Part shown: positions 1,593 to 62,589 of the stretch, in pieces
Numbering within the stretch: position 1 is the first letter of the stretch
Layout: each line of letters begins with the position of its first letter
From: an uncultured Candidatus Saccharibacteria bacterium
GTDB taxonomy: Bacteria > Patescibacteriota > Minisyncoccia > Phycocordibacterales > CALRHW01
Assembly (NCBI GenBank): GCA_964407105.1
Contig: CAYOUG010000001.1
Location: 164,273-228,272 of the forward strand
Length of the DNA stretch: 64,000 nucleotides
Direction of reading: 5' to 3'
Program-made: the position numbers and the translations under genes
Notes under the pieces: generated by a model
The model's input: the letters and a program-made list of their open reading frames with translations, nothing else
Database searches by the model: none
Told to the model about the DNA's origin: nothing

Positions 1593-2297
1593 TCAGTCAG
1601 GATCGACTCGCGAGAGAAGGAATGCGAAGCTGTACAAACCGTGACCCGCTCGATTCCAATTATCCTCTGGCCAGACAACATCAAGTGTCTTTGCAGAATC
1701 TATAAAGCGTCTTTCAGAGACCGTTGGAGAATGATCGGCCTGGCGAATTCCGAGCCGAATCTGATTTTGATCCTCCACCTCGTGCATCATGGTCAGATTC
1801 CAAAGACCCATCTCCCTAACCTGGTTGTCCGTGAAAGCTTCACGAAGGAGGAAACATGCTTCTAAAGGAAGTGGCCGCAGACAACGTCTCGAAGCATCGG
1901 CGACGACCATATCGGTCGTCAAAAGCTGTCTGCTAGATGCAAGCCCACGCCCATCTATGATGGCGACAGTGTACTCCACACCGCTCGTCACTTCAAACTT
2001 GGACGATCGCACTGATTCAGACCACTGACTCCTCATGCCATTCCTCAACTCCATGCCCAGATGACGCTCCCAATCATTTTTCGTCATACCAGTCGAGGTG
2101 AGAGTAGTATAGACAACGTTACCGTTGCGACGCCACCTAACCTCCGGCTTCGTGATACGCCACTCGCTGGAGTTCACCAGCCGAATAGCTTCGTTGGGAT
2201 CTTCTGCGCCCGTCTGCCTCATAATGTTCTTCAACAAAGCATTGAGCTTCATGATCTCTGGGAGAACATTAACAATAACAAGTGGATTCTTTTCCAT
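1593..2297 (-). CDS. hypothetical protein, encoded in a GC-rich islet
   Basis: Longest ORF in a visibly GC-rich block (about 1560-2340) with GC-rich codon usage unlike its neighbours; no recognisable motif. Confidence 0.5.
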   Translation of the reverse strand: MEKNPLVIVNVLPEIMKLNALLKNIMRQTGAEDPNEAIRLVNSSEWRITKPEVRWRRNGNVVYTTLTSTGMTKNDWERHLGMELRNGMRSQWSESVRSSKFEVTSGVEYTVAIIDGRGLASSRQLLTTDMVVADASRRCLRPLPLEACFLLREAFTDNQVREMGLWNLTMMHEVEDQNQIRLGIRQADHSPTVSERRFIDSAKTLDVVWPEDNWNRAGHGLYSFAFLLSRVDPD

Positions 2298-4183: not shown

Positions 4184-5713
4184 ATGTCAATCAAAACAAT
4201 TCTGCTCTTTGCGGGGTTTATGACAATTTTGGGTGTTGCGTTCGGATATTTTTTACGTCTCATAATTTCTCTAGGTAGAAAAGGTTCCATGGAGCTTGAT
4301 ATCAAGCAAATGGAGCTTAAAAGCAGAGAACAAGCACAAAAAATAATTACTGAGGCAGAGGAAAAAGCCGAACACACCCTAAAAGAAGCCCGTATTGAAG
4401 TAAAAGAAAAAGAAGAAAAACTGAAAAAAGCTGAGGATCGCATCATTAAAAAAGAAGAGTTACTAGACAAACGACAAATAGATATCGATTCAGAAGTAGA
4501 ATATATAAAAAATCGAATTGAGGAAGTAAAATCTATAAAAGAGCGCGCTGATGGATTACTTTTGGAACGTGAACAAAATCTACAAAAAGTAGCTAATTTA
4601 AGCGTGGAAGCAGCAAAAGAAGAAGTTTTTGCGATTGTAGAAAAAAAACACGAGGAAGACATACTTGTACGTATGCAAAAACTTGAAATGCTCGGTGCAG
4701 AAAAGCTCGACCGTCGAGCAAAAGATATTTTAGCTACTTCTATTCAGCGTCTTGCTACGTCGGTGTCTTCTGAAATGCTTACTACTACAGTACAAATCCC
4801 AAGCGATGAAGTAAAAGGAAAAATTATTGGAAAAGAGGGTCGAAATATTAAGGCATTTGAGCGCGCGACCGGCGTAGAAATAATCGTCGACGACACGCCG
4901 GGGGCTATTACCATCTCGTCGTTTGATCCTGTGCGACGACAGGTCGCGCGCGTCGCACTCGAAGCACTCATTGCAGACGGCCGTATTCAGCCTGCAAAAA
5001 TCGAAGAAATGGTTGAGAAATCAAAAAACGATATCAATAAAATTATAAAAGATCAGGGTGAGGCGGCTGCATATGAGTGTGGGGTACTAAATCTAGATCC
5101 ACGCATCATCGCCATCCTTGGACGTCTACATTTTCGTACAAGTTACGGTCAAAATGTGCTTCAGCACTCTATAGAAATGACGCACATAGCAGGAATGCTT
5201 GCTGAAGAACTTGGCGCAAATGTGGCAGTAGCAAAAGCCGGCGCACTTCTTCACGACATCGGCAAAGCGCTCGATCACGAAGTAGCGGGTTCTCATGTAG
5301 AAATCGGACGCAGAATTTTGCAAAAATTTGGTGCTAGTGAAGAAATCGTTAAAGCAATGCAAGCACATCACGAAGAATACCCTTATGAAACAATCGAATC
5401 TATTATCGTACAGGTAGCTGATGCTATTTCAGGTGGTCGTCCGGGTGCACGACGTGACACAGTAGAAAATTATCTCAAACGTCTTGGTGATCTTGAAGCA
5501 ATCGCAACAGGTTTTAAGGGTGTAGAAAAATCATATGCCCTTCAAGCCGGAAGAGAAATTCGTGTGTTTGTTTTTCCTCAACAAGTGACAGAACTTGAAG
5601 CAAAAAATATGGCCCGAGATATCGCTCTAAAAATCGAAAATGATTTAAAATATCCAGGTGAAATTAAAGTAAATATTATTCGCGAATCTCGTTTCATAGA
5701 ATTCGCTAGATAA
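4184..5713 (+). CDS. rny: ribonuclease Y
   Basis: N-terminal TM helix, coiled coil, KH domain (GKEGRNIKAFERATGVEIIVDD) and HD domain (LLHDIGKA); contains a GC-rich codon patch at 4861-4951. Confidence 0.9.
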   Translation: MSIKTILLFAGFMTILGVAFGYFLRLIISLGRKGSMELDIKQMELKSREQAQKIITEAEEKAEHTLKEARIEVKEKEEKLKKAEDRIIKKEELLDKRQIDIDSEVEYIKNRIEEVKSIKERADGLLLEREQNLQKVANLSVEAAKEEVFAIVEKKHEEDILVRMQKLEMLGAEKLDRRAKDILATSIQRLATSVSSEMLTTTVQIPSDEVKGKIIGKEGRNIKAFERATGVEIIVDDTPGAITISSFDPVRRQVARVALEALIADGRIQPAKIEEMVEKSKNDINKIIKDQGEAAAYECGVLNLDPRIIAILGRLHFRTSYGQNVLQHSIEMTHIAGMLAEELGANVAVAKAGALLHDIGKALDHEVAGSHVEIGRRILQKFGASEEIVKAMQAHHEEYPYETIESIIVQVADAISGGRPGARRDTVENYLKRLGDLEAIATGFKGVEKSYALQAGREIRVFVFPQQVTELEAKNMARDIALKIENDLKYPGEIKVNIIRESRFIEFAR

Positions 5714-5817: not shown

Positions 5818-6090
5818 ATGAACAAACAAGCAATTGCAGAAGCAGTGCATGTAAAATTGGGTGGAACAAAAGCTCAAGCAGAAGAATTGGTAGATATGAT
5901 AATTGATTCTATCGTTTCGACACTAAAAAAAGGAGACGAGGTTTCAATTGCTGGTCTTGGTATTTTTTCTACAAAAACACGAGCCGCACGACAAGCTCGA
6001 AATCCTCGCACAGGAGAATCTATTCAGGTTCCTGCGATGCGAGTTCCAAAGTTTCGCGCAGCTAAAGCACTCAAGGACGCGGTGAAATAG
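5818..6090 (+). CDS. hup: DNA-binding protein HU
   Basis: 90 aa; GxGxF..RxxRxGRNPxTGE..I HU signature. Confidence 0.9.
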   Translation: MNKQAIAEAVHVKLGGTKAQAEELVDMIIDSIVSTLKKGDEVSIAGLGIFSTKTRAARQARNPRTGESIQVPAMRVPKFRAAKALKDAVK

Positions 6091-6124
6091 TGTTTCGAGT
6101 CTAAAAAGAAAACAGCTTTCGTAG

Positions 6125-6187
6125 GGGGTCTCGAGCGCGACGGCGCGAGAGCTTCAGGAATTTTTAAGCTTCAAAAATTCCGTACCC
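6125..6187 (+). repeat. family A element copy A2, in the loop of the hup terminator hairpin
   Basis: 63-bp core flanked by CGTAG direct repeats and a 24-bp local inverted repeat (6097-6120 / 6188-6215); internal hairpin shows compensatory change GGAATTTTT/AAAAATTCC versus GGATTTTTT/AAAAAATCC in the other copies. Confidence 0.85.
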
Positions 6188-6344
6188 GTAGAAAGCTGTT
6201 TTCTTTTTTAGACTCTATTACTTTATACTAATCAACAAAAAACGGCCTCCTCGCTAACCCGCTCGAAGGCTGTTTTTTTATTGTTTTTTAATTGCTTTTA
6301 TTATTTAAATCATTAGTATAATCCTAGAGAAAGGAGTGTTTGCA

Positions 6345-16712: not shown

Positions 16713-16757
16713 AGGCTGGCGTTTGAACATCGTAAGAAAAACCCCCTAAAATGTGTT

Positions 16758-16831
16758 TCGAAAACCACGCATAAATCGCTGCTGCGATTTTGCTACGCTC
16801 GGCGCCGTTGCGCCTGCGCGATGCTTTTCTC
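16758..16831 (+). repeat. family B GC-rich element, copy B2
   Basis: Core ATCGCTGCTGCGATTTTGCT..CGCTCGGCGCCGTTGCGCCTGCGCGA shared with 61234-61306; embedded between a 20-bp inverted repeat (16737-16757 / 16832-16851). Confidence 0.75.
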
Positions 16832-16890
16832 AACATATTTTAGGGGGTTTTCTTGCATTTATATGGCATTTATGCTATTCTCATCACACA

Positions 16891-19453: not shown

Positions 19454-19495
19454 GTTGCTGGTGTTTTGAAACAAAAAGAAAAAGTGGTGTTTAGG

Positions 19496-19558
19496 GGGGT
19501 CTCGAGCGCGACGGCGCGAGAGCTTCAGGATTTTTTAAGCTTCAAAAAATCCGTACCC
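19496..19558 (+). repeat. family A element copy A3
   Basis: 63-bp core identical to A1; in the loop of a local inverted repeat (GTGGTGTTTAGG / CCTAAACACCAC) just after the DksA-like gene. Confidence 0.85.
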
Positions 19559-19690
19559 CTAAACACCACTTTTTCTTTTTGTTTCACACTCACGTTATCC
19601 ACAGTGATATCGTTTTCTTTAACATTTCTTTAGGGAAACTTTATCTCCGCTTTGATGTAATACAGACATTAGCAACAGTTTCACTGTTAT

Positions 19691-24512: not shown

Positions 24513-25370
24513 ATGAAAGCTAAAAAATCACTCGGACAAAATTTTTTAAAATCAAAACACGCACTACGTGTGATTGTTGAATCTGCAAATATTGCGCCCA
24601 CTGATACCGTGCTTGAAATAGGGCCGGGAAAGGGGGCGCTTACCGCCGGACTTTTAGAAAAAGCGGGACACGTCATAGCGATAGAAAAAGACGATGAACT
24701 TGTGCCTTTTTTGCAAGAAATGTTTGCCGCAGATATTGCGACAAAAAAACTTACACTTATTCATGGAGATATTATGGAAATGACGATTGAGGAAATTTTT
24801 GCACAAGCACGAAATGCTGGCGCAAGCGATGTAACGGCAGAATCATACAAACTCGTTGCAAATATTCCATACTATATTACAGGTGCACTCATTCGAATGT
24901 TTTTGGAGACGGCGCGCCAGCCACGCCTCATGGTGCTCATGCTCCAAAAAGAGGTGGCGCGCCGCATCACCGCAACCGACAAAAAAGAAAGCTTACTCTC
25001 ACTTTCAGTAAAAGCATACGGCACACCTAAATATATAGAGACCGTCAAAGCAATGTTTTTTTCACCACGCCCAAACGTAGACTCCGCAATTTTACTTATT
25101 AAAGATATTTCAAAAGCATTTTTCAAACGGGACACAGATACAAAAGAAACATCTGGCATCCAACCAACCACACACGCCGAAGAAACTTTTTTCAAAATTA
25201 TCAAAGCCGGCTTTGCACACAAAAGAAAACTTTTGGTGCGCAATCTTGAAAGCGATTTTTCAAAAGAAAAAATTTCTACAACTTTTGCTTCGTGCAACCT
25301 TTCTCTAAAGGCGCGTCCAGAAGATCTTTCTCTTGATCAGTGGAAGTGTGTAACAACACAAATAAAATAA
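24513..25370 (+). CDS. rsmA: 16S rRNA (adenine1518/1519-N6)-dimethyltransferase
   Basis: SLGQNFL start and GPGKGALT SAM motif. Confidence 0.9.
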   Translation: MKAKKSLGQNFLKSKHALRVIVESANIAPTDTVLEIGPGKGALTAGLLEKAGHVIAIEKDDELVPFLQEMFAADIATKKLTLIHGDIMEMTIEEIFAQARNAGASDVTAESYKLVANIPYYITGALIRMFLETARQPRLMVLMLQKEVARRITATDKKESLLSLSVKAYGTPKYIETVKAMFFSPRPNVDSAILLIKDISKAFFKRDTDTKETSGIQPTTHAEETFFKIIKAGFAHKRKLLVRNLESDFSKEKISTTFASCNLSLKARPEDLSLDQWKCVTTQIK

Positions 25371-25396
25371 AACAAAAAACTTTTATATCTTTCTTC

Positions 25397-25459
25397 GGGT
25401 ACGGATTTTTTGAAGCTTAAAAAATCCTGAAGCTCTCGCACCGTCGCGCTCGAGACCCC
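25397..25459 (-). repeat. family A element copy A4 (reverse orientation)
   Basis: Reverse complement is a 63-bp core with one mismatch to A1; within a local inverted repeat (AAAACTTTTATATCTTTC / GAAAGATATAAAAGTTTT) between convergent rsmA and the 25506 gene. Confidence 0.85.
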
Positions 25460-25505
25460 CTACGAAAGATATAAAAGTTTTTTATTTTATTTTTTTGTTT
25501 AAACT

Positions 25506-39817: not shown

Positions 39818-41173
39818 ATGGATAGTAAAAAAATCTGGGAGAGTGTACTTGTGGATATAGAAATTAATGTTTCTAAGGCAAATTTCAATACTTGGTTCAA
39901 AGATACTTATATATATAAATTTGAAGATGGGGTGGTGTATTTGAGTGTGCCAAATAATTTTGTAAAGGAGTGGCTTCTTAAAAAATTTCACTCATATATA
40001 TTAAAGGCTTTGCGCGGACTATCAGAAAACGTTCGGTCGCTTGACTATATAGTAAGTAGGGGAGATATAAAGAAAAAAGAACCTGATCACATAAAAGGAT
40101 TAAACACTTTAGCTGAAAGCACAAACGAACTACCTTTAAATGAATTTTATATCAACAAAGACGATAATTTGAATCCAAAATACACCTTTGATTCTTTTAT
40201 TATCGGCCCATTCAACGAACTTGCTCACGCAGCAGCGCAAGCGATTATTAAAAAACCAGGAATTGTTTATAATCCACTTTTTGTTTACGGCAACACCGGA
40301 CACGGAAAAACCCACCTTATACAAGCAATAGGTAACCACATGAAACATACTTATCCTGAACGTAAGATACATTACCTTACATCAGAAAAATTTGCTGTTG
40401 ATTATATAAATTCAGTTCAAAATCAAAAAGTAAACAATTTCAAAGAAAAATATAGAAAATATGACGTTCTTATAATGGACGATATTCAATTTCTTTCAAA
40501 TAAAGAGAGGACTCAGGAAGAATTATTCCATTTGTTTAATTTTCTCTACGACAACAATAAGCAAATTATTTTTTCTTCAGACAAACATCCAAACTATATT
40601 CCACAACTCGAGGAACGTCTTAAATCGCGCTTTGGTGCTGGTATGATAGTAGACATTCCTCCTCCAGACGAAGAATCACGCGCAGCTATTTTGACTGCAA
40701 AACTAAAACAACACAACCTAGAACTACCAAAAGAGGTGCTTGCTTATCTTGCACAAACACTTTCTACAAACATTAGAGAGCTTGAGGGTGCTTTAAATGG
40801 GGTAATGATGCAAATGCAACTAAAACAAAAAGAAGTTACTCTTAATGATGTAAAAAACCTTCTTAAAAACAACACAAAACCAAAGAAAAATCTTTCACCA
40901 AAAGAAATAATAAAAATAATCGCTGATTTTTATAATATCAATGAAGAAAGTATTTATGAAAAAACAAGAAAAAAGGAAATAATAAAACCACGCCAAATTA
41001 CTATGTATATTTTACGAGAAGATTTTAATATCTCTTACCCATCAATAGGGGAGAAAATGGGAGGGCGAGACCACACTACAGTTATTCATTCGTGTGAAAA
41101 AATAAAAAACGACCTTAAATTAAATACTGACTTGGCGCAGGAGATAAATCAGATTAGATCAATGTTTGTTTGA
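39818..41173 (+). CDS. dnaA: chromosomal replication initiator protein DnaA
   Basis: AAA+ Walker A GNTGHGKTHL, Walker B LIMDDIQF, sensor motifs and C-terminal DNA-binding domain. Confidence 0.95.
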   Translation: MDSKKIWESVLVDIEINVSKANFNTWFKDTYIYKFEDGVVYLSVPNNFVKEWLLKKFHSYILKALRGLSENVRSLDYIVSRGDIKKKEPDHIKGLNTLAESTNELPLNEFYINKDDNLNPKYTFDSFIIGPFNELAHAAAQAIIKKPGIVYNPLFVYGNTGHGKTHLIQAIGNHMKHTYPERKIHYLTSEKFAVDYINSVQNQKVNNFKEKYRKYDVLIMDDIQFLSNKERTQEELFHLFNFLYDNNKQIIFSSDKHPNYIPQLEERLKSRFGAGMIVDIPPPDEESRAAILTAKLKQHNLELPKEVLAYLAQTLSTNIRELEGALNGVMMQMQLKQKEVTLNDVKNLLKNNTKPKKNLSPKEIIKIIADFYNINEESIYEKTRKKEIIKPRQITMYILREDFNISYPSIGEKMGGRDHTTVIHSCEKIKNDLKLNTDLAQEINQIRSMFV

Positions 41174-41402: not shown

Positions 41403-42503
41403 ATGAAAATAGAATGTCTTATCGAAAAATTAAATAAACATATAATGCAGGCTGAGCGTATTGCAGGTAAAAATCATTCACTACCAATTATTAATTGTAT
41501 TTTATTGGAAGCAACAAAAAACTCACTTCGTATTAGATCTACAAATCTTGATTTAGGTATAGAAATTACTGTGCCAGTAAAAGTATTAGAAGAGGGAAGT
41601 GTTGCTGTACCCGCTGGTATATTAGGTATGTTTTTATCGAGTTTACATACAGATAAAGCAGTAACACTAGAAACAAAAGATAATACTTTATTTGTTTTTT
41701 CTCAAAAAAATTCAACACAAATAAAAACCCAGTCAGTAGAAGATTTTCCAACATTACCAATGGTTTCAAATGAAAAACTATTTAAAATTAATCCACAAGA
41801 TTTTATAAATGGTTTAAAGTCGGTATGGTACAGCTCTTCAGTTTCAAGTATGAAATCTGAACTCTCAAGTGTTTATATTTACAGTGATGATGATAGTCTT
41901 GTTTTTGTTGCCACTGACTCATTTAGGCTTGCTGAGAAAAAAATAAAAAACCAGAAAATAAAAGAATTTAATCATCTTCTTATTCCTTTTAAAAACATTC
42001 CAGAAATAATTCGAGTACTTGAAAATACTTCAAATGAAGTGGAAATTTGTGTAGAAAAAAACCAAATATCTTTTACATACGAATACATATACCTTACTTC
42101 ACGTGTTATTGATGGTGTTTTTCCTGATTACAAACAAATTATCCCTAAAAATTTTACTACCGAAGTGGTAATGTTAAAACAAGATTTTGTAAATTCTCTT
42201 AAGACAGCAAATATTTTCTCAAACAAACTTAATCAGATAAACATAAAAGCATTACCGTCTAAAAAGATATTTGAACTTCAAACAAAAAATTCAGATATTG
42301 GAGAAAACACAAATAGTATTGATGCTGTTTTTATAGGTGAAGATATAGATATTAATTTTAATTATAAATATGTTGTTGATTGTCTCCAATCCATTGATTC
42401 AGAAAGTATTTCTTTAAATTTTACAGGAATGAATAAACCAATGGTGATATTTGGTGTTTCAGATAAATCATTTCTTTATCTTGTGATGCCTATGAATAGG
42501 TAG
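41403..42503 (+). CDS. dnaN: DNA polymerase III beta sliding clamp
   Basis: 366 aa with three-domain clamp architecture; conserved N-terminus MKIECLIEKL.. Confidence 0.9.
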   Translation: MKIECLIEKLNKHIMQAERIAGKNHSLPIINCILLEATKNSLRIRSTNLDLGIEITVPVKVLEEGSVAVPAGILGMFLSSLHTDKAVTLETKDNTLFVFSQKNSTQIKTQSVEDFPTLPMVSNEKLFKINPQDFINGLKSVWYSSSVSSMKSELSSVYIYSDDDSLVFVATDSFRLAEKKIKNQKIKEFNHLLIPFKNIPEIIRVLENTSNEVEICVEKNQISFTYEYIYLTSRVIDGVFPDYKQIIPKNFTTEVVMLKQDFVNSLKTANIFSNKLNQINIKALPSKKIFELQTKNSDIGENTNSIDAVFIGEDIDINFNYKYVVDCLQSIDSESISLNFTGMNKPMVIFGVSDKSFLYLVMPMNR

Positions 42504-48953: not shown

Positions 48954-49058
48954 GCTAGACAGCTGTTATGCATTACGCTAATGATGTATTGACAAATACA
49001 TCAAATTATGCTATACTCTACGTTAGAAATACCTTGAAATTAAATGTGTGTTGAGATG

Positions 49059-49110
49059 TTTGCCACAACGGAAAATGGCTTGAAAATAAGCTATTTTCCG
49101 TTGTGGCAAA
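49059..49110. promoter_or_regulatory. 52-bp palindrome (perfect 18-bp arms) upstream of the GC-rich ORF; candidate operator
   Basis: TTTGCCACAACGGAAAAT-ggcttgaaaataagct-ATTTTCCGTTGTGGCAAA, about 50 nt upstream of the ATG at 49158. Confidence 0.4.
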
Positions 49111-49157
49111 CCAATGTGGTTAAGCCAACAAACAGCACTTCAGAAAGGAAAAGTCAC

Positions 49158-49718
49158 ATGGCACGTTCAAAGTCTGAAAAACTCATGAACCCGGCGACAG
49201 AATTGGAAATCGGAGAGGTGGAAGCAGTGGACACTTTTGTTTTGAAAGGAGACTCTTTCATTACGATCAGAGAGGGAAAACAGACCTCGACGATGGTGGC
49301 TTCCATCGACCCCTTTTTTATGAGTCGATTTTTTACGAAGACCCCAAATGCGGATCATGCCATGGTGGTTGTCAAACCACCAACATTGAAACGAAGGTTT
49401 CAGTGCACCGGCTTGAAGCGATACGACCATGGAAGGTACGTGGTTGCGAGCGAGGTGATTCGCGAGTTGGGTGGGGAAGCAAAGGTCGCAATAACTCCAG
49501 CGGAGTTTTGTCACTTTCTGGCGTCCCAATCCGATGATTTTAGGTTCAAGAATCGCGTTTGTTTTATGAGGGACACAAGTGGTGTTCTTCAGGAGGTTTA
49601 TGTGAGTTACTACCAACATGGTTCTCTAGCTGGTCTTCATATCAGCGCCAACCTCATCAATTGCGGTCGATGGTCTGAGGGAACACGTTTGGTTTTCCCT
49701 CGTGCCAAAGGAAAGTGA
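49158..49718 (+). CDS. hypothetical protein in a GC-rich islet
   Basis: GAAAGGAAAAG ribosome-binding site; GC-rich codon usage unlike the flanking ruvB and pilB; no recognisable motif. Confidence 0.5.
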   Translation: MARSKSEKLMNPATELEIGEVEAVDTFVLKGDSFITIREGKQTSTMVASIDPFFMSRFFTKTPNADHAMVVVKPPTLKRRFQCTGLKRYDHGRYVVASEVIRELGGEAKVAITPAEFCHFLASQSDDFRFKNRVCFMRDTSGVLQEVYVSYYQHGSLAGLHISANLINCGRWSEGTRLVFPRAKGK

Positions 49719-52097: not shown

Positions 52098-52430
52098 ATG
52101 ACAACTCGATCGAACATTATCAAACTCGCAGTTCTCACCTTCGTCGCGATGCTCCTCGGTGGAGCGTTTGGCGGATGTGGTCCTCAACGGACCACGTCGA
52201 TTGAGACTGTGGTTAACCCCGACGGTTCAACCACGGTCCACAAGTACAAGACGGTTGTCGAGGGAGGGAGCGGAATGTTCGCCCCCGTCCACATCAACCG
52301 ATACTCGTCCCCCGGATATGTTCGGGGGCGATACGTGGAATGGGGTACGGAGAATCGCGGGGTTGCTTATCACAGCTTCGGGCTCAACGAGCCCCACAAG
52401 CACGTGTATGGCAACAACTGCAACAAGTGA
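52098..52430 (+). CDS. small putative lipoprotein in a GC-rich islet
   Basis: Signal peptide ending ..LLGGAFGGC (lipobox-like); GC-rich codons; own promoter and terminator. Confidence 0.55.
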   Translation: MTTRSNIIKLAVLTFVAMLLGGAFGGCGPQRTTSIETVVNPDGSTTVHKYKTVVEGGSGMFAPVHINRYSSPGYVRGRYVEWGTENRGVAYHSFGLNEPHKHVYGNNCNK

Positions 52431-52627: not shown

Positions 52628-53020
52628 ATGAAGCTCTTTGGAATTGTTGCTGCGGCGATGGTTGCAGCTGTGTCATGTGGTGCGTTGGCTGAGACGATTA
52701 CGCGTACCGAGTACGCTGGTGGGCCGGTCATGACGTACACCAACGGTGTGCTCACGCATGTCAACGGTATGAGTGTGCCACCACCCGCACCTCCGCCAGC
52801 CCCCGTTGTGCAGACGCAGGTTGTGGTGGTGCAACAGTATGCCCCGCCTCCGCAGGTGGTGTGTGTCGAACGGCCACGCGTGGTCTTTCGGTACTACCAC
52901 CAGCCGACGTACTGCGCACCGGTGGTGCATGTGCGTTCGTGTGAATCACGGGTGAATGTTGGCCTTTCAGTCGGCATTCGTTTCGGTGGTGGACACGATC
53001 ACTTTCACCCTTGCCGCTAG
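52628..53020 (+). CDS. small secreted Pro-rich, Cys/His-containing protein in a GC-rich islet
   Basis: Signal peptide (..CGALA/ETI), PPPAPPPAP linker, four Cys and GGGHDHFHPC at the C-terminus; own promoter-like TTGACT..TAGTAT and AAAGGAAG ribosome-binding site. Confidence 0.55.
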   Translation: MKLFGIVAAAMVAAVSCGALAETITRTEYAGGPVMTYTNGVLTHVNGMSVPPPAPPPAPVVQTQVVVVQQYAPPPQVVCVERPRVVFRYYHQPTYCAPVVHVRSCESRVNVGLSVGIRFGGGHDHFHPCR

Positions 53021-53085
53021 ACGTTTGCATCTCTCTTGGGGTGCGCACGCGTCAGATCTTTATGGTCTGACGCGTTTTCTTTTAC

Positions 53086-53158
53086 AAAATTTGTTGTAAC
53101 CCCCCACCCAACACTCTCTCACTAAAGCGCTTCGCTAACCCGTTCGAGAGTGTTGGGT
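53086..53158. repeat. exceptionally long perfect hairpin (23-bp GC-rich stem, 27-nt loop) upstream of tsaE
   Basis: GTAACCCCCCACCCAACACTCTC ... GAGAGTGTTGGGTGGGGGGTTAC; loop contains TCGCTAACCCGTTCGAG, similar to the loop at 6251-6268. Confidence 0.7.
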
Positions 53159-53172
53159 GGGGGGTTACACCC

Positions 53173-53703
53173 TTGATGAAAGATTGTTTTGTGTGGGTTT
53201 TAGGCGACCAGCTGTGCTACTATAGTCGCATGATTACTACCACAAGTCTGACAGAAACATACGTGGTTGCGGCGGATTTTGTACAAAAAATTATCAAAAT
53301 TCCCCAACAAATTTCTGATAATAATTCTTTATCTAATGCTATTGTTGTTGGTTTTTATGGAGATTTAGGTGCAGGAAAAACAGCTTTCATACAAGGTATA
53401 GCAAAAGCGTTGGGTGTAGAATCTCAGGTGGTGAGTCCTACGTTTGTGTTAGAAAAAATATATAAACTTAATGCGAGTATGCAGGAAAGATTTACACACC
53501 TTGTGCACATTGATGCGTATCGTATGGATGATCCAAAAGAACTTGTGCATATTGGCTGGCACGATCTTCTTAAAGATTCGCGAAACCTTATTTGTATTGA
53601 ATGGCCAGAACGTGTTGCATCAGAAATGCCACAAAATCATATTCACATCACTTGTGGTTTCGTTGACGACACAACTCATACTTACGATATTCAATTATCA
53701 TGA
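53173..53703 (+). CDS. tsaE: tRNA threonylcarbamoyladenosine biosynthesis protein TsaE
   Basis: P-loop GDLGAGKTAF and TsaE-like length; alternative start 53230. Confidence 0.8.
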   Translation: MMKDCFVWVLGDQLCYYSRMITTTSLTETYVVAADFVQKIIKIPQQISDNNSLSNAIVVGFYGDLGAGKTAFIQGIAKALGVESQVVSPTFVLEKIYKLNASMQERFTHLVHIDAYRMDDPKELVHIGWHDLLKDSRNLICIEWPERVASEMPQNHIHITCGFVDDTTHTYDIQLS

Positions 53704-56240
53704 CTTCTGCTATACAAAAAGAAAAAACGAAAACCCGCATCAGTGGTGAACAAAAAAAAGTTGTACTACTCGATGTGCATGCAATAATTCATCGCGCTTA
53801 TCATGCGTTGCCTGATTTTTCATCTGCGAAAGGTGAGCCCACTGGTGCGCTTTATGGTTTGTGCACAATGCTTCTAAAAATCGCAGGTGAACTTTCTCCA
53901 GATTATGTAGTGGCGTGTTATGATCTTCCAGAAAAAACACATCGACACGAAGTGTACGAAGCGTACAAAGGTACACGTAAGAAAATTGACGATGCGCTTA
54001 TTGCGCAGATTATACGTTCTCGAGATATTTTTACAGCGTTTAATATTCCTATCTATGCATGTCCGGGTTTTGAAGCAGATGATGTGCTTGGTACTATTGC
54101 AGAACATTTAAAAAAGGGGGACGCAACGGTGGGTGATGATAAAAAAGTTGATGTTAATGTAAGTGTGATTATTGCTTCTGGTGATATGGATACGCTTCAG
54201 CTTGTTGATGATAAAAAAGTGCAAGTTTACACTTTGCGAAAAGGAATTAAAGACACGGTGCTTTATGACGAAGAGGCGGTGTGTGAGCGTTTTGGTTTTG
54301 CGCCAATACTTTTGCCAGATTTTAAAGGACTTCGTGGAGACCCCTCAGATAATATTATTGGCATCAAAGGTATTGGAGAAAAAACCGCGACAACACTTAT
54401 TACAACATTTGGCTCGATAGAAAAAATGTATGAGGCGCTTGCTAAAGGTGATGCGTCATTTAAAGAAGCTGGAATTACTCCGAGAATTATTGATTTGTTG
54501 CGAGCAGGAAAAGAAGAGGCGATGTTTTCAAAAACACTTGCAACGATTCGTCGTGATGCACCGATAGATTTTTCTTTGCCAGAACAAACATGGAAAGAAT
54601 CGCTCTCGCAAAATGGCTCACATATTGCGATACTCAGTGCTCTTTTTGCAGAACTAGATTTTCGTTCAATGATGGGTCGTGTGGAAGAAGTGTTGCTTGG
54701 GAAAAAGCCTCTCAAGCAGAGCAGTTTGCTTGGTGTGGACAATGAGAGTGGATTGGGTGCGGCGGGAGCGGCAGAGGGCGTGGGCGTAAGCGCGGGCACG
54801 GTAGCGCTCCCGCCGCATGAACAAAAGCTTCTTTCTCTTGCCCTGTGGATTATTGATTCAAATATTTCAAATCCCACAACAGAAGATATTTTGCGCTTTG
54901 CACACACCGACTCACTCGTTGTCGCACAAAAAATGATTTTCTCCGAACTTGAAAAACGCGGTCTTTTGAAAGTATTTAAAGAAATTGAAGAGCCGCTCAT
55001 TGCCGTGATAGATGGAATGCAAACTCGAGGGATAAAAGTAGATACGAAATATTTAAAAACACTTTCGCAGGAGTATCATGCACGTCTCAAAGATCTTGAG
55101 AAAAATATTTACAAAGAAGCGGGAGGGGAGTTTAATATCAACTCACCAAAACAAATGGGCGAGATTCTTTTCGATAAACTCGGCCTCTCTGTGAAAGGAC
55201 AAAAGAAAACTGCGGGCGGTGCAAAATCTACGCGCGAAAGTGAGCTTGAAAAAATGATTGATATTCATCCAATCATCAAACACATTCTCACATATCGGAT
55301 GCTTCAAAAACTCGTTTCTACATACATCGACACGTTACCCACAATGCTTGCGGAAGACGGACGCCTACACACCACCTTTGAACAAACAGGCACCACCACC
55401 GGCCGTATGTCTTCCAACAATCCCAACCTTCAAAATATTCCTATCAAAACAGAAGAAGGTCGTCGCATCCGAAATGCTTTTGTAAGCGAGCGAGGTTTCA
55501 AACTCGTCACCTTCGACTATTCTCAAATCGAACTTCGCATCGCAGCATTTCTTTCTGGCGATCAAAAACTAATTGAAATTTTTACATCCGGCGGAGACAT
55601 TCATGAAGCGGTGGCGTCGCAAGTGTTTGGTGTACCGCGCGAAAAAGTGGATAGGGAAATGCGCCGCAGGGCGAAAGTTATCAACTTCGGCATTCTTTAT
55701 GGTATGGGAGTAAATGCTTTGCGTGCAAATTTAAGTGAAGGCGTAGCAAAGGGTTCTGAAGTTTCCCGCGAAGAAGCGCAGCGTTTTTTTGACGAATATT
55801 TTAATACATTCACCGGTCTCGCACAGTATTTAGAAAATGTAAAAGCGAGCGCAAAAAAGACCGGCTACACAGAAACATTTTTCGGTCGTCGTAGATATTT
55901 TCCGCAGATAAAATCTAAGCTTCCATACATTGTGGCGGCAAATGAGCGCATGGCTATCAACGCTCCGATACAAGGCACAGCAGCGGATGTGATCAAGCTT
56001 TCTATGATTCACATTCACGACTACATTAAAAAAGAAGGTTTGGAGAACGATGTGTTTCTCTTGCTTCAGGTGCACGATGAACTTGTGTTTGAAATTCGTG
56101 AAGATGCTGTGAAAAAAGTGTTGCCGGAGCTTGAGCGTATTATGCAAAGCGTGCTTACTCCTACGCAAATGCGTGGCGTGCCTTTAAAAGTAAATGGTAA
56201 ATTGGGGGACAATTGGGGCGAGACTGAAGAGATCAAATAA
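53700..56240 (+). CDS. polA: DNA polymerase I (5'-3' exonuclease plus polymerase domains)
   Basis: FEN motifs in the N-terminal domain; motif A DYSQIELR, motif B RRAKVINFGILYG, motif C LLQVHDELVFE; contains an in-frame GC-rich palindromic insertion in the inter-domain linker. Confidence 0.9.
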   Translation: MTSAIQKEKTKTRISGEQKKVVLLDVHAIIHRAYHALPDFSSAKGEPTGALYGLCTMLLKIAGELSPDYVVACYDLPEKTHRHEVYEAYKGTRKKIDDALIAQIIRSRDIFTAFNIPIYACPGFEADDVLGTIAEHLKKGDATVGDDKKVDVNVSVIIASGDMDTLQLVDDKKVQVYTLRKGIKDTVLYDEEAVCERFGFAPILLPDFKGLRGDPSDNIIGIKGIGEKTATTLITTFGSIEKMYEALAKGDASFKEAGITPRIIDLLRAGKEEAMFSKTLATIRRDAPIDFSLPEQTWKESLSQNGSHIAILSALFAELDFRSMMGRVEEVLLGKKPLKQSSLLGVDNESGLGAAGAAEGVGVSAGTVALPPHEQKLLSLALWIIDSNISNPTTEDILRFAHTDSLVVAQKMIFSELEKRGLLKVFKEIEEPLIAVIDGMQTRGIKVDTKYLKTLSQEYHARLKDLEKNIYKEAGGEFNINSPKQMGEILFDKLGLSVKGQKKTAGGAKSTRESELEKMIDIHPIIKHILTYRMLQKLVSTYIDTLPTMLAEDGRLHTTFEQTGTTTGRMSSNNPNLQNIPIKTEEGRRIRNAFVSERGFKLVTFDYSQIELRIAAFLSGDQKLIEIFTSGGDIHEAVASQVFGVPREKVDREMRRRAKVINFGILYGMGVNALRANLSEGVAKGSEVSREEAQRFFDEYFNTFTGLAQYLENVKASAKKTGYTETFFGRRRYFPQIKSKLPYIVAANERMAINAPIQGTAADVIKLSMIHIHDYIKKEGLENDVFLLLQVHDELVFEIREDAVKKVLPELERIMQSVLTPTQMRGVPLKVNGKLGDNWGETEEIK
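54759..54815 (+). repeat. in-frame GC-rich palindromic insertion within polA (57 bp, 19 codons; encodes AAGAAEGVGVSAGTVALPP)
   Basis: 11-bp terminal inverted repeat GCGGCGGGAGC / GCTCCCGCCGC; codon usage foreign to the rest of polA. Confidence 0.6.
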
Positions 56241-56976: not shown

Positions 56977-57082
56977 GACAATTTGAAATTACGTATTGTT
57001 GACTTATTTCTACCTCATGTTACCATCTTTGCTTGACGTGTTTTTGTGTTCGGGGGTTCATTTAACATCTTGGGAGTCTAGA

Positions 57083-57400
57083 ATGCTTAGCTTGGTGATC
57101 GAAGTGAGTCATGAATTGTTTCTTCGCGTCGAGGAACTGACGAATGCTGTGGTGAGGGCGGTCGTTGAGGCAACCGGAATCAACGCCGCCGATCTGTGGT
57201 TTTTTGTGAAGGGACCACCTGAACAAGATCTGGCTCCAAATGGGGTCATGATCAAGACGAGCGGTTGGTCGCAACAAACAGATTGGCTACAACAGCTTGA
57301 AAGAGCTGTCACGAACGCAATCAGCGGGATGGGCTTTCAACCGCAAAGGGTTGCGATGTGTCATTCGGTGGCATTGCGAAGCACGCTTTTTTCCCACTGA
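57083..57400 (+). CDS. small hypothetical protein in a GC-rich islet
   Basis: GGAG ribosome-binding site; GC-rich codons; followed by the GC-rich terminator CCGCCCG..CGGGCGG at 57432-57470. Confidence 0.45.
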   Translation: MLSLVIEVSHELFLRVEELTNAVVRAVVEATGINAADLWFFVKGPPEQDLAPNGVMIKTSGWSQQTDWLQQLERAVTNAISGMGFQPQRVAMCHSVALRSTLFSH

Positions 57401-57992: not shown

Positions 57993-58545
57993 GCACGTAG
58001 TATATCAGCCTGTGAAAATTATGAAAATAGTGTATGGTGTGAGCATGAAAAAAACAGTGAAAAATAAAACGCCAGTATATGTAATTCTCCACAATATTCG
58101 CAGTATCCATAATGTCGGTTCTGTTTTTCGCACAGCTGATGCGGCAGGAGTTTTAAAAATATTTCTTACAGGATATACACCTACACCACATGATCGTTTT
58201 GGTCGTATCAGAAAAGATCTTGCAAAAGTGGCTCTTGGTGCAGAAAATTCTGTGGAATGGGAATATGTGAAAAATCCAACAACACTTTTAAAGCGACTTA
58301 AGAAAGAAAAAATTCAGATTATTGCCGTGGAACAAAGTTCGCATGCAATAAATTACAAAAAAGTAAAAATAGATAATGGCGCCGGCGCGACCGCGTTTTT
58401 GTATGGAAACGAGGTCTCCGGTGTCGTGCCGGCGCTCCTCTCTCTGTGTGACACAATTGCCGAAATTCCAATGTTGGGCAAAAAAGAATCGCTTAATGTT
58501 TCTGTTGCAGTTGGTGTTACACTTTTTGGAATACTAGATCTTTAG
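57991..58545 (+). CDS. SpoU/TrmH-family RNA 2'-O-methyltransferase
   Basis: Motifs VILHNIRSIHNVGSVFRTADAAG, YGNEVSGV and IPMLGKKESLNVSVAVGV; start uncertain (57991 or 58045). Confidence 0.75.
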   Translation: MHVVYQPVKIMKIVYGVSMKKTVKNKTPVYVILHNIRSIHNVGSVFRTADAAGVLKIFLTGYTPTPHDRFGRIRKDLAKVALGAENSVEWEYVKNPTTLLKRLKKEKIQIIAVEQSSHAINYKKVKIDNGAGATAFLYGNEVSGVVPALLSLCDTIAEIPMLGKKESLNVSVAVGVTLFGILDL

Positions 58546-61180: not shown

Positions 61181-61233
61181 GACAAAAAACCAAAACATGT
61201 GTTGAGAAGAGAAAAATAAAAACAGTGGTGTGT

Positions 61234-61306
61234 CTCGCGATACGCGTCAATCGCTGCTGCGATTGCTGCTCCGCTCGGCGCCGTCGCGCCTGCGCGAGTT
61301 CGCTTA
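61234..61306 (+). repeat. family B GC-rich element, copy B3
   Basis: Core ..ATCGCTGCTGCGATTGCTGCTCCGCTCGGCGCCGTCGCGCCTGCGCGAG.. within a 20-bp perfect inverted repeat (61214-61233 / 61307-61326) between convergent genes. Confidence 0.75.
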
Positions 61307-61320
61307 ACACACCACTGTTT

Positions 61321-62589
61321 TTATTTTTCTAACATCTTTCGCAACTCCTCTTCTGCTACTGCGCGATCACTCCACGGTTCTTTTGTTCCACCTGCGCGCA
61401 TGATATATGGATCAGTTCCTTTTCCAGTAATAAGTATAGCGTCACCGGCGCGCGCTTTGGAAATAGCTTTTGCAATAGCTTGTCTGCGATCCATAATGAT
61501 TTCACAGGGTTTTTCAACAATTGCCTTTTTCATTTCCTCCACAATGCTTAAAGGATCATCATCGTAAGGATCTTCGTCGGTAAGAATAATTTCATCACAA
61601 TATGAGTCGGCGATTTGTGCCATTTCTGGTCTTTTCCAAGTATCACGTCCACCACCGGTATTACCAAGTACACATATTTTTCGTTGAGTAGGAAATGCTT
61701 GGTAAAGCTTTTCAAGAGAGTCTGCGGTGTGTGCATAGTCGACAATAACATCAAAATTTTGTCCCATCTCGACACGTTCAACACGCCCTTTGATTGGCGC
61801 AATATGTGAAAGTGCACGGGCGATTGTTTCAACAGGAATTCCCATTGCGTGTGTTACTGTTGCTGCAGCAAGAGCATTGTATATATTAAAAAGTCCCGTG
61901 AGCGGCATGAAAATTTTTGTACCATGAAATGTGAATGTAACAGAATGTTGATTTTCTTTGTTATCAAGCGTATACGGTTTTGCGTCATTAATTGAAAATG
62001 GAACAGTGTGTTTTATTTTTGGTAAAGAAAGATAAAATGTGGATTCGCTATCGTCAAGATTTGCTACCATCCACGTTTCTTTATGCGAACGAGTAAGTGC
62101 TAAAGCGATAGACCTTTTTGCGTCACGGTATTTTTCAAACGAACCATGTGACTCAATATGTTCTGGCGAAAGATTATTGAATATAAGTGCATTAAGTTCT
62201 ATGCCGTGATGACGATATTGTCTCGCACCCTCAGAGGTTATTTCTATTACTGCATGAGTACACTGAGCATTTACTGCTTCCCGTAAAAAATTTTGCATAA
62301 AAAAGCGTCCCGGCATCGACATTTTATACATATTCGGACGACTTTTTTCGGCAATTTTAAAACGAATAGTATTTGAAAGCGCAGTTTTTTTGCCCGCTTC
62401 TTCTAGTATTGCGTTGATAAGTTCTGTCGTACTAGATTTTCCTTTTGTGCCCGTAACACCTATTACTATAAGTTTTTTTGAAGGAAAGCCGTTGAGTATT
62501 GTGCCTGTGTATGCAAGAAGTATGTGATATGCAGGTTGAAAAAAATTAAACATTGGTTTAGGAATAATTTTTTTAAGAAATGAAAACAT
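61321..62589 (-). CDS. Mur ligase family protein (MurE/MurF-like central and C-terminal domains, short N-terminus)
   Basis: GVTGTKGKSST P-loop; C-terminal DYAHTADSLEKL, GGGRD..KRP and TDEDP motifs. Confidence 0.7.
   Translation of the reverse strand: MFSFLKKIIPKPMFNFFQPAYHILLAYTGTILNGFPSKKLIVIGVTGTKGKSSTTELINAILEEAGKKTALSNTIRFKIAEKSRPNMYKMSMPGRFFMQNFLREAVNAQCTHAVIEITSEGARQYRHHGIELNALIFNNLSPEHIESHGSFEKYRDAKRSIALALTRSHKETWMVANLDDSESTFYLSLPKIKHTVPFSINDAKPYTLDNKENQHSVTFTFHGTKIFMPLTGLFNIYNALAAATVTHAMGIPVETIARALSHIAPIKGRVERVEMGQNFDVIVDYAHTADSLEKLYQAFPTQRKICVLGNTGGGRDTWKRPEMAQIADSYCDEIILTDEDPYDDDPLSIVEEMKKAIVEKPCEIIMDRRQAIAKAISKARAGDAILITGKGTDPYIMRAGGTKEPWSDRAVAEEELRKMLEK

Follow-up and report, generated by a model that had tools for sequence, protein, structure and literature searches.

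In the 64,000-nt stretch of contig CAYOUG010000001.1 analysed here (the window), which comes from an uncultured bacterium of the Candidate Phyla Radiation (CPR), the DNA polymerase I gene polA contains a patch of 19 GC-rich codons that is bounded by a perfect inverted repeat (IR) and encodes a Gly/Ala-rich peptide. Both the repeat and the codon bias are real, and the patch is a single-copy, inherited feature whose arms are conserved while its spacer has diverged. Similar GC-rich IRs, each with one newly written arm, occur in ksgA and spoU. With moderate confidence, we propose that template switching during replication wrote the polA repeat and has kept it perfect, and that the encoded peptide is tolerated as a flexible linker.

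The two arms of the repeat, TGCGGCGGGAGCG and CGCTCCCGCCGCA, are 13 nt long, pair perfectly and are separated by a 34-nt spacer (Table 1). The whole structure spans 60 nt (54758-54817) and overruns both ends of the 19 codons (54759-54815), which lie in frame in the open reading frame (ORF) at 53700-56240, position 54759 being a codon start, and encode AAGAAEGVGVSAGTVALPP. A sequence-only reading of this DNA had described a 57-bp segment with an 11-bp IR; the IR and the 19 codons are there, but the repeat is two bases longer in each arm. Two other proposals of that reading, that the Gly/Ala-rich peptide lies in the linker between the exonuclease and polymerase domains and that its codon usage is foreign to polA, are borne out by the Pfam domain boundaries and the codon counts, respectively. 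The window is AT-rich (GC 0.38); its genes typically have a GC content at third codon positions (GC3) of ~0.27, and polA has one of 0.36. The patch, with a GC of 0.81 and a GC3 of 0.79, is the GC-richest 19-codon window in 60 long ORFs, the runner-up reaching 0.70. Fifteen of its 19 codons end in G or C, compared to 5.4 expected for the same peptide under the codon usage of the window, and none of 100,000 simulations reached 15, indicating that the GC richness is more than an effect of Gly, Ala and Pro codons.

Chance is also a poor explanation for the repeat. A perfect IR of at least 13 nt was obtained in none of 5000 dinucleotide shuffles of the 76-nt region (P < 2e-4), and the longest GC-rich stem in 300 local-composition shuffles of the whole window was 10 nt. 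The RNA of the patch is predicted to fold with -43.1 kcal/mol (z = -4.9), and the opposite strand folds similarly. No terminator or promoter signal was found at the patch. A permissive Rfam 15 search of positions 54650-54920 returned only a microRNA (miRNA)-precursor look-alike of 19.5 bits against a threshold of 84 bits, and the Rfam 15 search of the whole window returned six tRNAs and nothing else.

A homologous patch, at the same site and with a spacer of the same 34-nt length, was found in the two closest polA orthologs, P0002 at locus L001 (84% identity, Logan assembly) and P0003 at locus L002 (82% identity, JGI), the sequence of the latter being also present in L026 and L027 from sister samples. 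The next relatives, P0004-P0014, are without it, and the three patch-bearing lineages form a near-trichotomy. Among the other Paceibacterota linkers examined, which are mostly Lys/Glu-rich or otherwise ordinary, the polA hairpin was not seen. The shared position in the two closest orthologs indicates that the patch is real and, judged from these alignments, is vertically inherited. An assembly artefact was ruled out, as the patch is present in independent NCBI, Logan and JGI sample assemblies.

Between the window and L001, 25 of the 26 arm positions are identical, with the 12-nt core of both arms unchanged, whereas identity drops to 68% in the spacer, where 11 of 34 nt are changed. Two identical 13-mers lying 47 nt apart around a spacer of at most 68% identity occur nowhere else when polA of the window is aligned with that of L001 (2404 positions). 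The L001 patch has an IR of 12 nt (P = 4e-4) and keeps the GC-rich codons, 15 of 19 ending in G or C as in the window; its fold energy is ordinary for its composition (z = -0.8). The L002 patch has a longest perfect IR of 6 nt (P = 0.36), folds no better than its shuffles (minimum free energy z = +1.5) and has partly AT-shifted codons, of which 10 of 19 end in G or C. By eye, the window spacer does not match the reverse complement of the L001 spacer, giving no sign of a spacer inversion between these orthologs, which would be a mark of template switching. The three patch-bearing lineages have LPP in common, compared to LPE in the close patch-free orthologs that retain the L-P; the change from GAA to CCG or CCA involves three nucleotides and allows pairing with the left arm over a longer stretch. 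Neither arm is the same as in the patch-free orthologs, among which no outgroup with an intermediate state was found.

In PolA, which combines a 5'-3' nuclease with a family-A polymerase, Pfam assigned PF02739 to residues 20-199, PF01367 to residues 202-300 and PF00476 (DNA_pol_A) to residues 450-841, and detected no 3'-5' exonuclease domain. The closest homologues are DNA polymerase I proteins of Paceibacterota/Parcubacteria. In an AlphaFold2 model built with 27 orthologs, the predicted local distance difference test (pLDDT) score falls below 50 at residues 336-368, no secondary structure is predicted at residues 333-371, and a helix starts at residue 372. Since the patch (residues 354-372) falls within the unstructured stretch of the model, it is predicted to belong to a disordered tether between nuclease and polymerase. 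This tether is the most length-variable part of PolA in the ortholog alignment and is hypervariable in sequence too. Between the conserved 'SLL' and 'LP', relatives with 70-75% identity have 8 to 17 residues, compared to 25 in the window, 24 in L001 and 33 in L002. The polA of P0010 (L067 2988-3110) has a long Gly/Asp-rich tether expansion of its own, GDDFGNGGGFTGDDGDYGDASGFGKTSKVAD, with a GC of 0.50-0.57 and no IR longer than 7 nt. PolA also has small clade-specific insertions (GDATVGD, QNGSH and EGVAKG), none of which is bounded by an IR.

Such variability raises the explanation that the patch is an ordinary low-complexity Gly/Ala linker expansion, arising for example by triplet slippage, in which the GC content comes from the Gly, Ala and Pro codons and the IR is incidental. 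The linkers of the orthologs are often of low complexity, GGN, GCN and CCN codons are inherently GC-rich, and the L001 version resembles an imperfect GCG/GGC run. However, this explanation leaves the excess of G/C third positions, the 13-nt perfect IR and the L001 repeat to chance, and the P0010 expansion has neither such a GC content nor an IR. Moreover, Tandem Repeats Finder reported no repeat in the patch of either the window or L001, which contradicts slippage. Together, the codon simulations, the IR shuffles and the Tandem Repeats Finder result largely refute an ordinary linker expansion, which we regard as very improbable.

GC-rich IRs are in excess in the window and in the clade. In the whole window, five perfect GC-rich IRs of at least 9 nt were found against 0.21 expected from local-composition shuffles, and in its coding DNA four were found against 0.21 expected from synonymous-codon shuffles; the latter shuffles showed no excess of AT-rich or mid-GC coding IRs. 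In 282 kb of AT-rich DNA of the clade, 18 IRs with 11-nt stems and at most one mismatch were found, compared to 2.1 expected. The loops of eight of these 18 measure 29-34 nt, while other 10-nt bins hold one or two each and the null is flat. Across the clade, GC-rich repeats with a spacer of ~34 nt are thus over-represented, a small pattern but a statistically clear one.

The IRs in ksgA and spoU, for which orthologs are available, are informative about their arms. In ksgA of the window, the 3' arm consists of conserved EVARR codons that the closest relative, L060, has in identical form, and the lineage-specific 5' arm differs from L060 at 7 of 9 bases. At this site, the ksgA gene of the non-sister lineage L064 also has an IR, 11 nt long and paired in another register. 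In these genes the left arm is the exact complement of the gene's own right arm, synonymous variant included (GTG in the window, GTC in L064); the palindromic GCGCGC core of the ksgA cases permits a direct-repeat reading as well. In spoU of the window, the loop encodes a conserved AFLYGNEVSG motif and the 3' arm consists of GV(V/L)PA codons that are also present in L003. Its 5' arm comprises a three-codon insertion (GGC GCC GGC) together with altered codons, and is absent from L002 and L003. The spoU gene of L003 carries a different, 10-nt IR elsewhere in the gene, with a 34-nt loop and a 3' arm common to L002, and its 5' arm corresponds to an L003-specific change of AAG AAA to CGC GCG. As an observation apart, KsgA (24513-25370) has two lineage-specific extra segments compared to its orthologs, one of ~11 residues (RNAGASDVTAE) and one of ~14-16 residues (RDTDTKETSGIQPTTH), the latter partly shared with P0122.

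An old 3' arm paired with a new 5' arm was therefore found in four cases, ksgA of the window and of L064 and spoU of the window and of L003. The polarity of the new 5' arm is consistent relative to transcription, with n = 4 only, and inconsistent relative to replication, since ksgA lies to the left and polA and spoU to the right of the probable dnaA-dnaN origin and all are on the plus strand. The ksgA and spoU hairpins are lineage-specific and show no long-term conservation. Because these IRs enclose conserved coding sequence, they are not inserted elements. In relatives, GC-rich IR sites were seen at L003 7010-7063, L064 10364-10418, L061 ~1542 and L065 ~2435; most of the GC-rich IRs, in the window and in relatives, lie within coding sequence.

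The patch was compared with mobile elements. A blastn-short search of the masked window found nothing similar to it in the rest of the window (best E ~1). Against the dispersed intergenic repeat families A and B of the window (Table 1), the best Smith-Waterman score was 19, compared to a shuffle mean of 17.7 (P = 0.31), and the architecture of the patch is unlike theirs, with a GC-rich outer stem and no three-way junction. An approximate-arm search of 39 related CPR loci (228 kb) gave no second copy beyond the orthologous polA sites. A scan for the exact arms with a 24-44-nt gap, in one genome for each of 185,579 species, gave 22 hits, none of them in CPR and mostly in high-GC taxa, for example Streptomyces, Nocardia and Gemmatimonadales; we take these as chance or terminator-type matches. 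Of the source contig, which is at least 284 kb long, these copy-number tests cover 64 kb, and the species scan is one of exact arms. No target-site duplication was seen at the patch, whose flanks are TTGGG and TGAAC. The boundaries are unclean, in that the right arm encodes an L-P that lines up with the one conserved in the close orthologs P0004-P0012, and the net gain is 11 residues and not 19 when P0004, the nearest ortholog lacking the patch, is taken as the reference.

These results bear on the sequence-only reading, which had seen an in-frame insertion here. A lineage-specific extra linker segment does lie in frame in polA, but its net length gain is less than 19 codons, and the L-P of its right arm matches conserved residues. 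That reading had held that relatives with the same residues in ordinary codons would speak against an insertion; the residues are homologous in L001 and L002, but their codons are GC-rich in the former and partly AT-shifted in the latter, not ordinary. Its broader suggestion, that GC-rich palindromic elements of this genome colonise coding DNA in the manner of Rickettsia palindromic elements (RPEs), is not supported, given the missing similarity to the seven intergenic copies, the missing CPR match, the missing target-site duplication and the conserved coding sequence enclosed by the analogous ksgA and spoU IRs.

An insertion could still be ancient: a GC-rich palindromic mobile element, analogous to an RPE, a miniature inverted-repeat transposable element (MITE) or a GC cluster, may have entered polA in frame in the ancestor of the three lineages and now be decaying. 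Consistent with this, the patch has terminal IRs and sits in frame in an intact ORF at a fold-compatible, surface or disordered site, and the entire 57-60 nt, beyond the arms, are compositionally foreign. In addition, one clade has the patch while its relatives are without it, the L002 patch looks partly AT-ameliorated, and the genome hosts dispersed GC-rich structured repeats that are missing from relatives. On the other hand, the patch belongs to no multi-copy family, no second copy was found in the window, the 228 kb of related loci or the CPR genomes of the exact-arm scan, and it is unrelated to families A and B. It also has neither a target-site duplication nor clean presence/absence boundaries, and structurally identical IRs in ksgA and spoU surround conserved coding sequence. 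We consider an ancient insertion improbable, and on the sequence comparisons the patch is most likely a single-copy, locally generated sequence and not a jumping palindromic element.

One old arm and another rewritten as its perfect complement, without long-term conservation, fit replication template switching. This process has been reported to create and homogenise short perfect inverted repeats (PMC5453318). Perfect IRs conserved beyond expectation are a reported signature of template-switch correction (PMC5941160). Other reports describe perfect stems that template switching creates and maintains (PMC8794818) and its remodelling of coding sequence (PMC8604942). In polA, template switching between nearby GC-rich sequences would have written the 13-bp terminal IR, through creation and correction of a quasi-palindrome, and the same process would then have kept the arms perfect. 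It would be active across the clade, where ksgA and spoU contain similar GC-rich repeats of 10-13 bp with a spacing of 29-35 nt. The Gly/Ala-rich peptide would be translated and tolerated because the length and sequence of the tether vary freely across the phylum. The polA repeat shows the marks of a quasi-palindrome in that the IR is beyond chance and the arms are more conserved than the spacer, the latter for the window versus L001 and not for L002. Both template switching as the writing mechanism and neutrality of the peptide are inferred.

Several points weigh against template switching. The 34-nt spacer is GC-rich as well and has kept G/C-ending codons (8 of 11) in two lineages despite drift, for which arm rewriting is insufficient. 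With no intermediate outgroup, the direction and number of the polA events are not reconstructable. The restriction of the excess to GC-rich IRs requires the added assumption that a switch can be primed only by pairing as stable as that of GC-rich arms, and the preferred 29-35-nt spacing does not follow from the standard model of template switching. Finally, only three patch-bearing lineages are available, and in one of them, L002, the arms are degenerate, with six differences, none of which is compensatory.

Some of these points would fit selection on a nucleic-acid hairpin in polA mRNA or DNA, whose GC-rich codons are retained for hairpin function. Such a hairpin could, for example, slow or decouple translation at the domain boundary, shield upstream mRNA from 3' exonucleases or serve as a protein-binding site. 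Selection would account for arms that are identical in the window and L001 around a spacer that is 32% diverged, for the persistence of G/C-ending codons in that diverged spacer, for the very stable fold of the window patch and for the limitation of the coding-DNA excess to GC-rich, stable IRs. The use of one ksgA site by two lineages in different pairing registers also agrees with it, and the spacing of 29-35 nt points to some ruler, for example a bound protein. However, the L002 hairpin is degenerate and its arm differences are uncompensated, the L001 fold is not unusual for its composition, and the hairpin is absent from every other Paceibacterota polA linker examined. Furthermore, the ksgA and spoU hairpins are lineage-specific and not conserved, and the patch has no terminator- or promoter-like signal and no Rfam family. 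Selection for a hairpin therefore appears rather unlikely to us, though less so than an ancient insertion.

As an unlikely possibility, we also considered that these Paceibacterota have a ruler-based process that writes or recognises hairpins with GC-rich 10-13-bp arms ~29-35 nt apart in coding and non-coding DNA. The recurrence at one ksgA site in two lineages with different registers is compatible with such a process, as is the fact that AT-rich repeats do not show it. We can only speculate that the ruler is a bound protein (e.g., one footprint of single-strand-binding protein) or the geometry of the replisome. Such a process might likewise be behind the growth of the perfect, locus-specific outer stems in the Y-shaped intergenic repeats described below. 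If it exists, the polA patch would be its oldest visible product, and the process a route for new peptide segments into essential proteins.

Returning to template switching, the case corrects a tempting misreading: a foreign-looking in-frame palindrome in a housekeeping gene resembles an RPE, yet this one is inherited, has a single copy and is explained most simply as made locally by replication. If the template-switch explanation is true, an essential enzyme of a CPR bacterium with a reduced genome has gained translated sequence through a mutational mechanism, and the arms of an inverted repeat evolve in concert inside a gene.

Table 1. Features of the polA patch, related GC-rich inverted repeats and intergenic repeat families in the window
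Feature	Position	Strand	Description
polA ORF, 846 aa	53700..56240	+	5'-3' nuclease and family-A polymerase; ORF list, Pfam
Predicted disordered inter-domain tether, residues 333-371	54696..54812	+	AlphaFold2 model, 27 orthologs
Left IR arm TGCGGCGGGAGCG	54758..54770	.	Within lineage-specific part of the linker; positions 2-13 same in L001; L002 has cAGGGCGGGAGCG
19-codon GC-rich patch AAGAAEGVGVSAGTVALPP	54759..54815	+	PolA residues 354-372
Spacer, 34 nt, GC-rich	54771..54804	+	8/11 codons G/C-ending; equal length in all three lineages
Right IR arm CGCTCCCGCCGCA	54805..54817	.	Codes (A)LPP(H); overlaps L-P(E) codons conserved in patch-free orthologs
GC-rich IR in ksgA/rsmA	24910..24964	.	CGGCGCGCCA / TGGCGCGCCG, loop 35; or 12 bp with 1 mismatch, loop 31
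GC-rich IR in SpoU-family methylase gene	58379..58435	.	13 bp with one G-T, loop 31
GC-rich IR in KH-domain region of RNase Y gene	4861..4951	.	12 bp, 1 mismatch, loop 67; possibly same class
9-bp GC-rich IR, 35-nt loop	52279..52331	.	Within GC-rich orphan ORF 52098-52430; possibly same class
Family A intergenic repeats	56-180, 6090-6209, 19461-19590, 25361-25496(-)		GC-rich, dispersed
Family B intergenic repeats	182-312, 16738-16851(-), 61205-61335(-)		GC-rich, dispersed, related to family A

The seven copies of families A and B have a conserved GC-rich core that forms a three-way junction, with a GCGC-GACG-GCGC hairpin and a second hairpin. Around the core lies an AT-rich outer stem of 31-39 bp, which is locus-specific and almost perfectly complementary (~-70 kcal/mol, z ~-11). 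No copy was found in 228 kb of related CPR DNA, syntenic loci included, and the families match no Rfam family; the syntenic sites downstream of ksgA in L060 and L061 are present without a repeat copy. Families A and B may be structured RNA genes, a hairpin-targeting mobile element or cores with stems grown by template switching. The heptamer GCGCGAC, which occurs at 13 sites compared to 2.9 expected (e.g., 101, 4863, 6135, 19506, 58385 and 61283), is common to the family A/B cores and the repeat arms in the spoU and RNase Y genes, and is not in the polA patch. A Logan contig of the same organism, L062, begins and ends inside two family-A copies, and a metagenomic contig of the L002 species, L027 (Ga0163147_10013111), starts at its position 1 within the polA patch (GGAACGGCAGTGCTCCC...). 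These contig ends suggest that assemblies tend to break at such hairpins and repeats.

Just upstream of tsaE and polA, an intergenic hairpin at 53095-53170 has a 24-bp perfect stem (TAACCCCCCACCCAACACTCTCTC...; -53 kcal/mol, z = -9.7) and is preceded by an ordinary terminator-like hairpin at ~53050-53085. Two small ORFs, 52098-52430 and 52628-53020, sit between the T2SSE gene and tsaE. They have a GC of 0.56 and 0.59 and a GC3 of 0.68 and 0.60, respectively, no Pfam hit and, by eye, hydrophobic N-termini resembling signal peptides, and one of them is Pro/Val-rich. Given this atypical composition, and since L003 has only 580 nt at this place, the two ORFs are probably foreign DNA. Other ORFs of atypical GC3 are 1593-2297(-), 49044-49718 and 56996-57400, and no Pfam hit was obtained for any of them. 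The dnaA (39818-41173) and dnaN (41403-42503) genes lie at the minimum of the cumulative GC skew, in the most AT-rich part of the window, indicating that the chromosomal replication origin is probably near 39-41 kb.

Compared with known systems, the patch resembles several families of palindromes only superficially. Like RPEs (PMC10969869, PMC1779305), it is an in-frame palindrome in a housekeeping gene that is translated, fold-neutral and lineage-restricted. However, RPEs are ~150 bp long and occur as families, of which a genome holds dozens of copies with a conserved peptide in common (PMC10969869), whereas the patch is a single-copy sequence of 60 nt with no family and no clean insertion boundaries. 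GC clusters of yeast mitochondria (PMC4478555) are likewise short GC-rich palindromes in a very AT-rich genome, but they constitute a multi-copy mobile family with a consensus, while the patch has neither a second copy nor a consensus. Repetitive extragenic palindromic (REP) sequences and bacterial interspersed mosaic elements (BIMEs) (PMC3733652) are also GC-rich hairpin formers, and in BIMEs a short linker is flanked by two inverted units. REP sequences differ in being extragenic and high-copy, with a terminal GTAG or CGTC tag; the patch is intragenic and single-copy, and L001 has GCAG in place of its sole GTAG (54801-54804 in the window). The coding palindromes of Nematomorpha mitochondria (PMC6649704) are perfect IRs in protein genes with both arms translated, as here, but they are numerous, up to 284 bp long and found in animal mitochondria, whereas the patch has short arms and a fixed spacer in a bacterial chromosome.

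The comparison with published template-switch repeats (PMC5941160, PMC8794818, PMC8604942, PMC5453318) goes further. Different from those, the repeats described here are in excess only when GC-rich, in an AT-rich genome, and have a spacing of 29-35 nt, and the polA spacer is itself foreign; none of these features is part of the published model. For the known kind, descriptions do not include a restriction to GC-rich arms in an AT-rich CPR genome, the 29-35-nt spacing or recurrence at one site in separate lineages. In common with the published repeats, those analysed here have Watson-Crick arms whose perfect pairing far exceeds chance, a spacer less conserved than the arms and clustered multi-nucleotide changes that raise complementarity, in coding sequence and with a change of the encoded protein.

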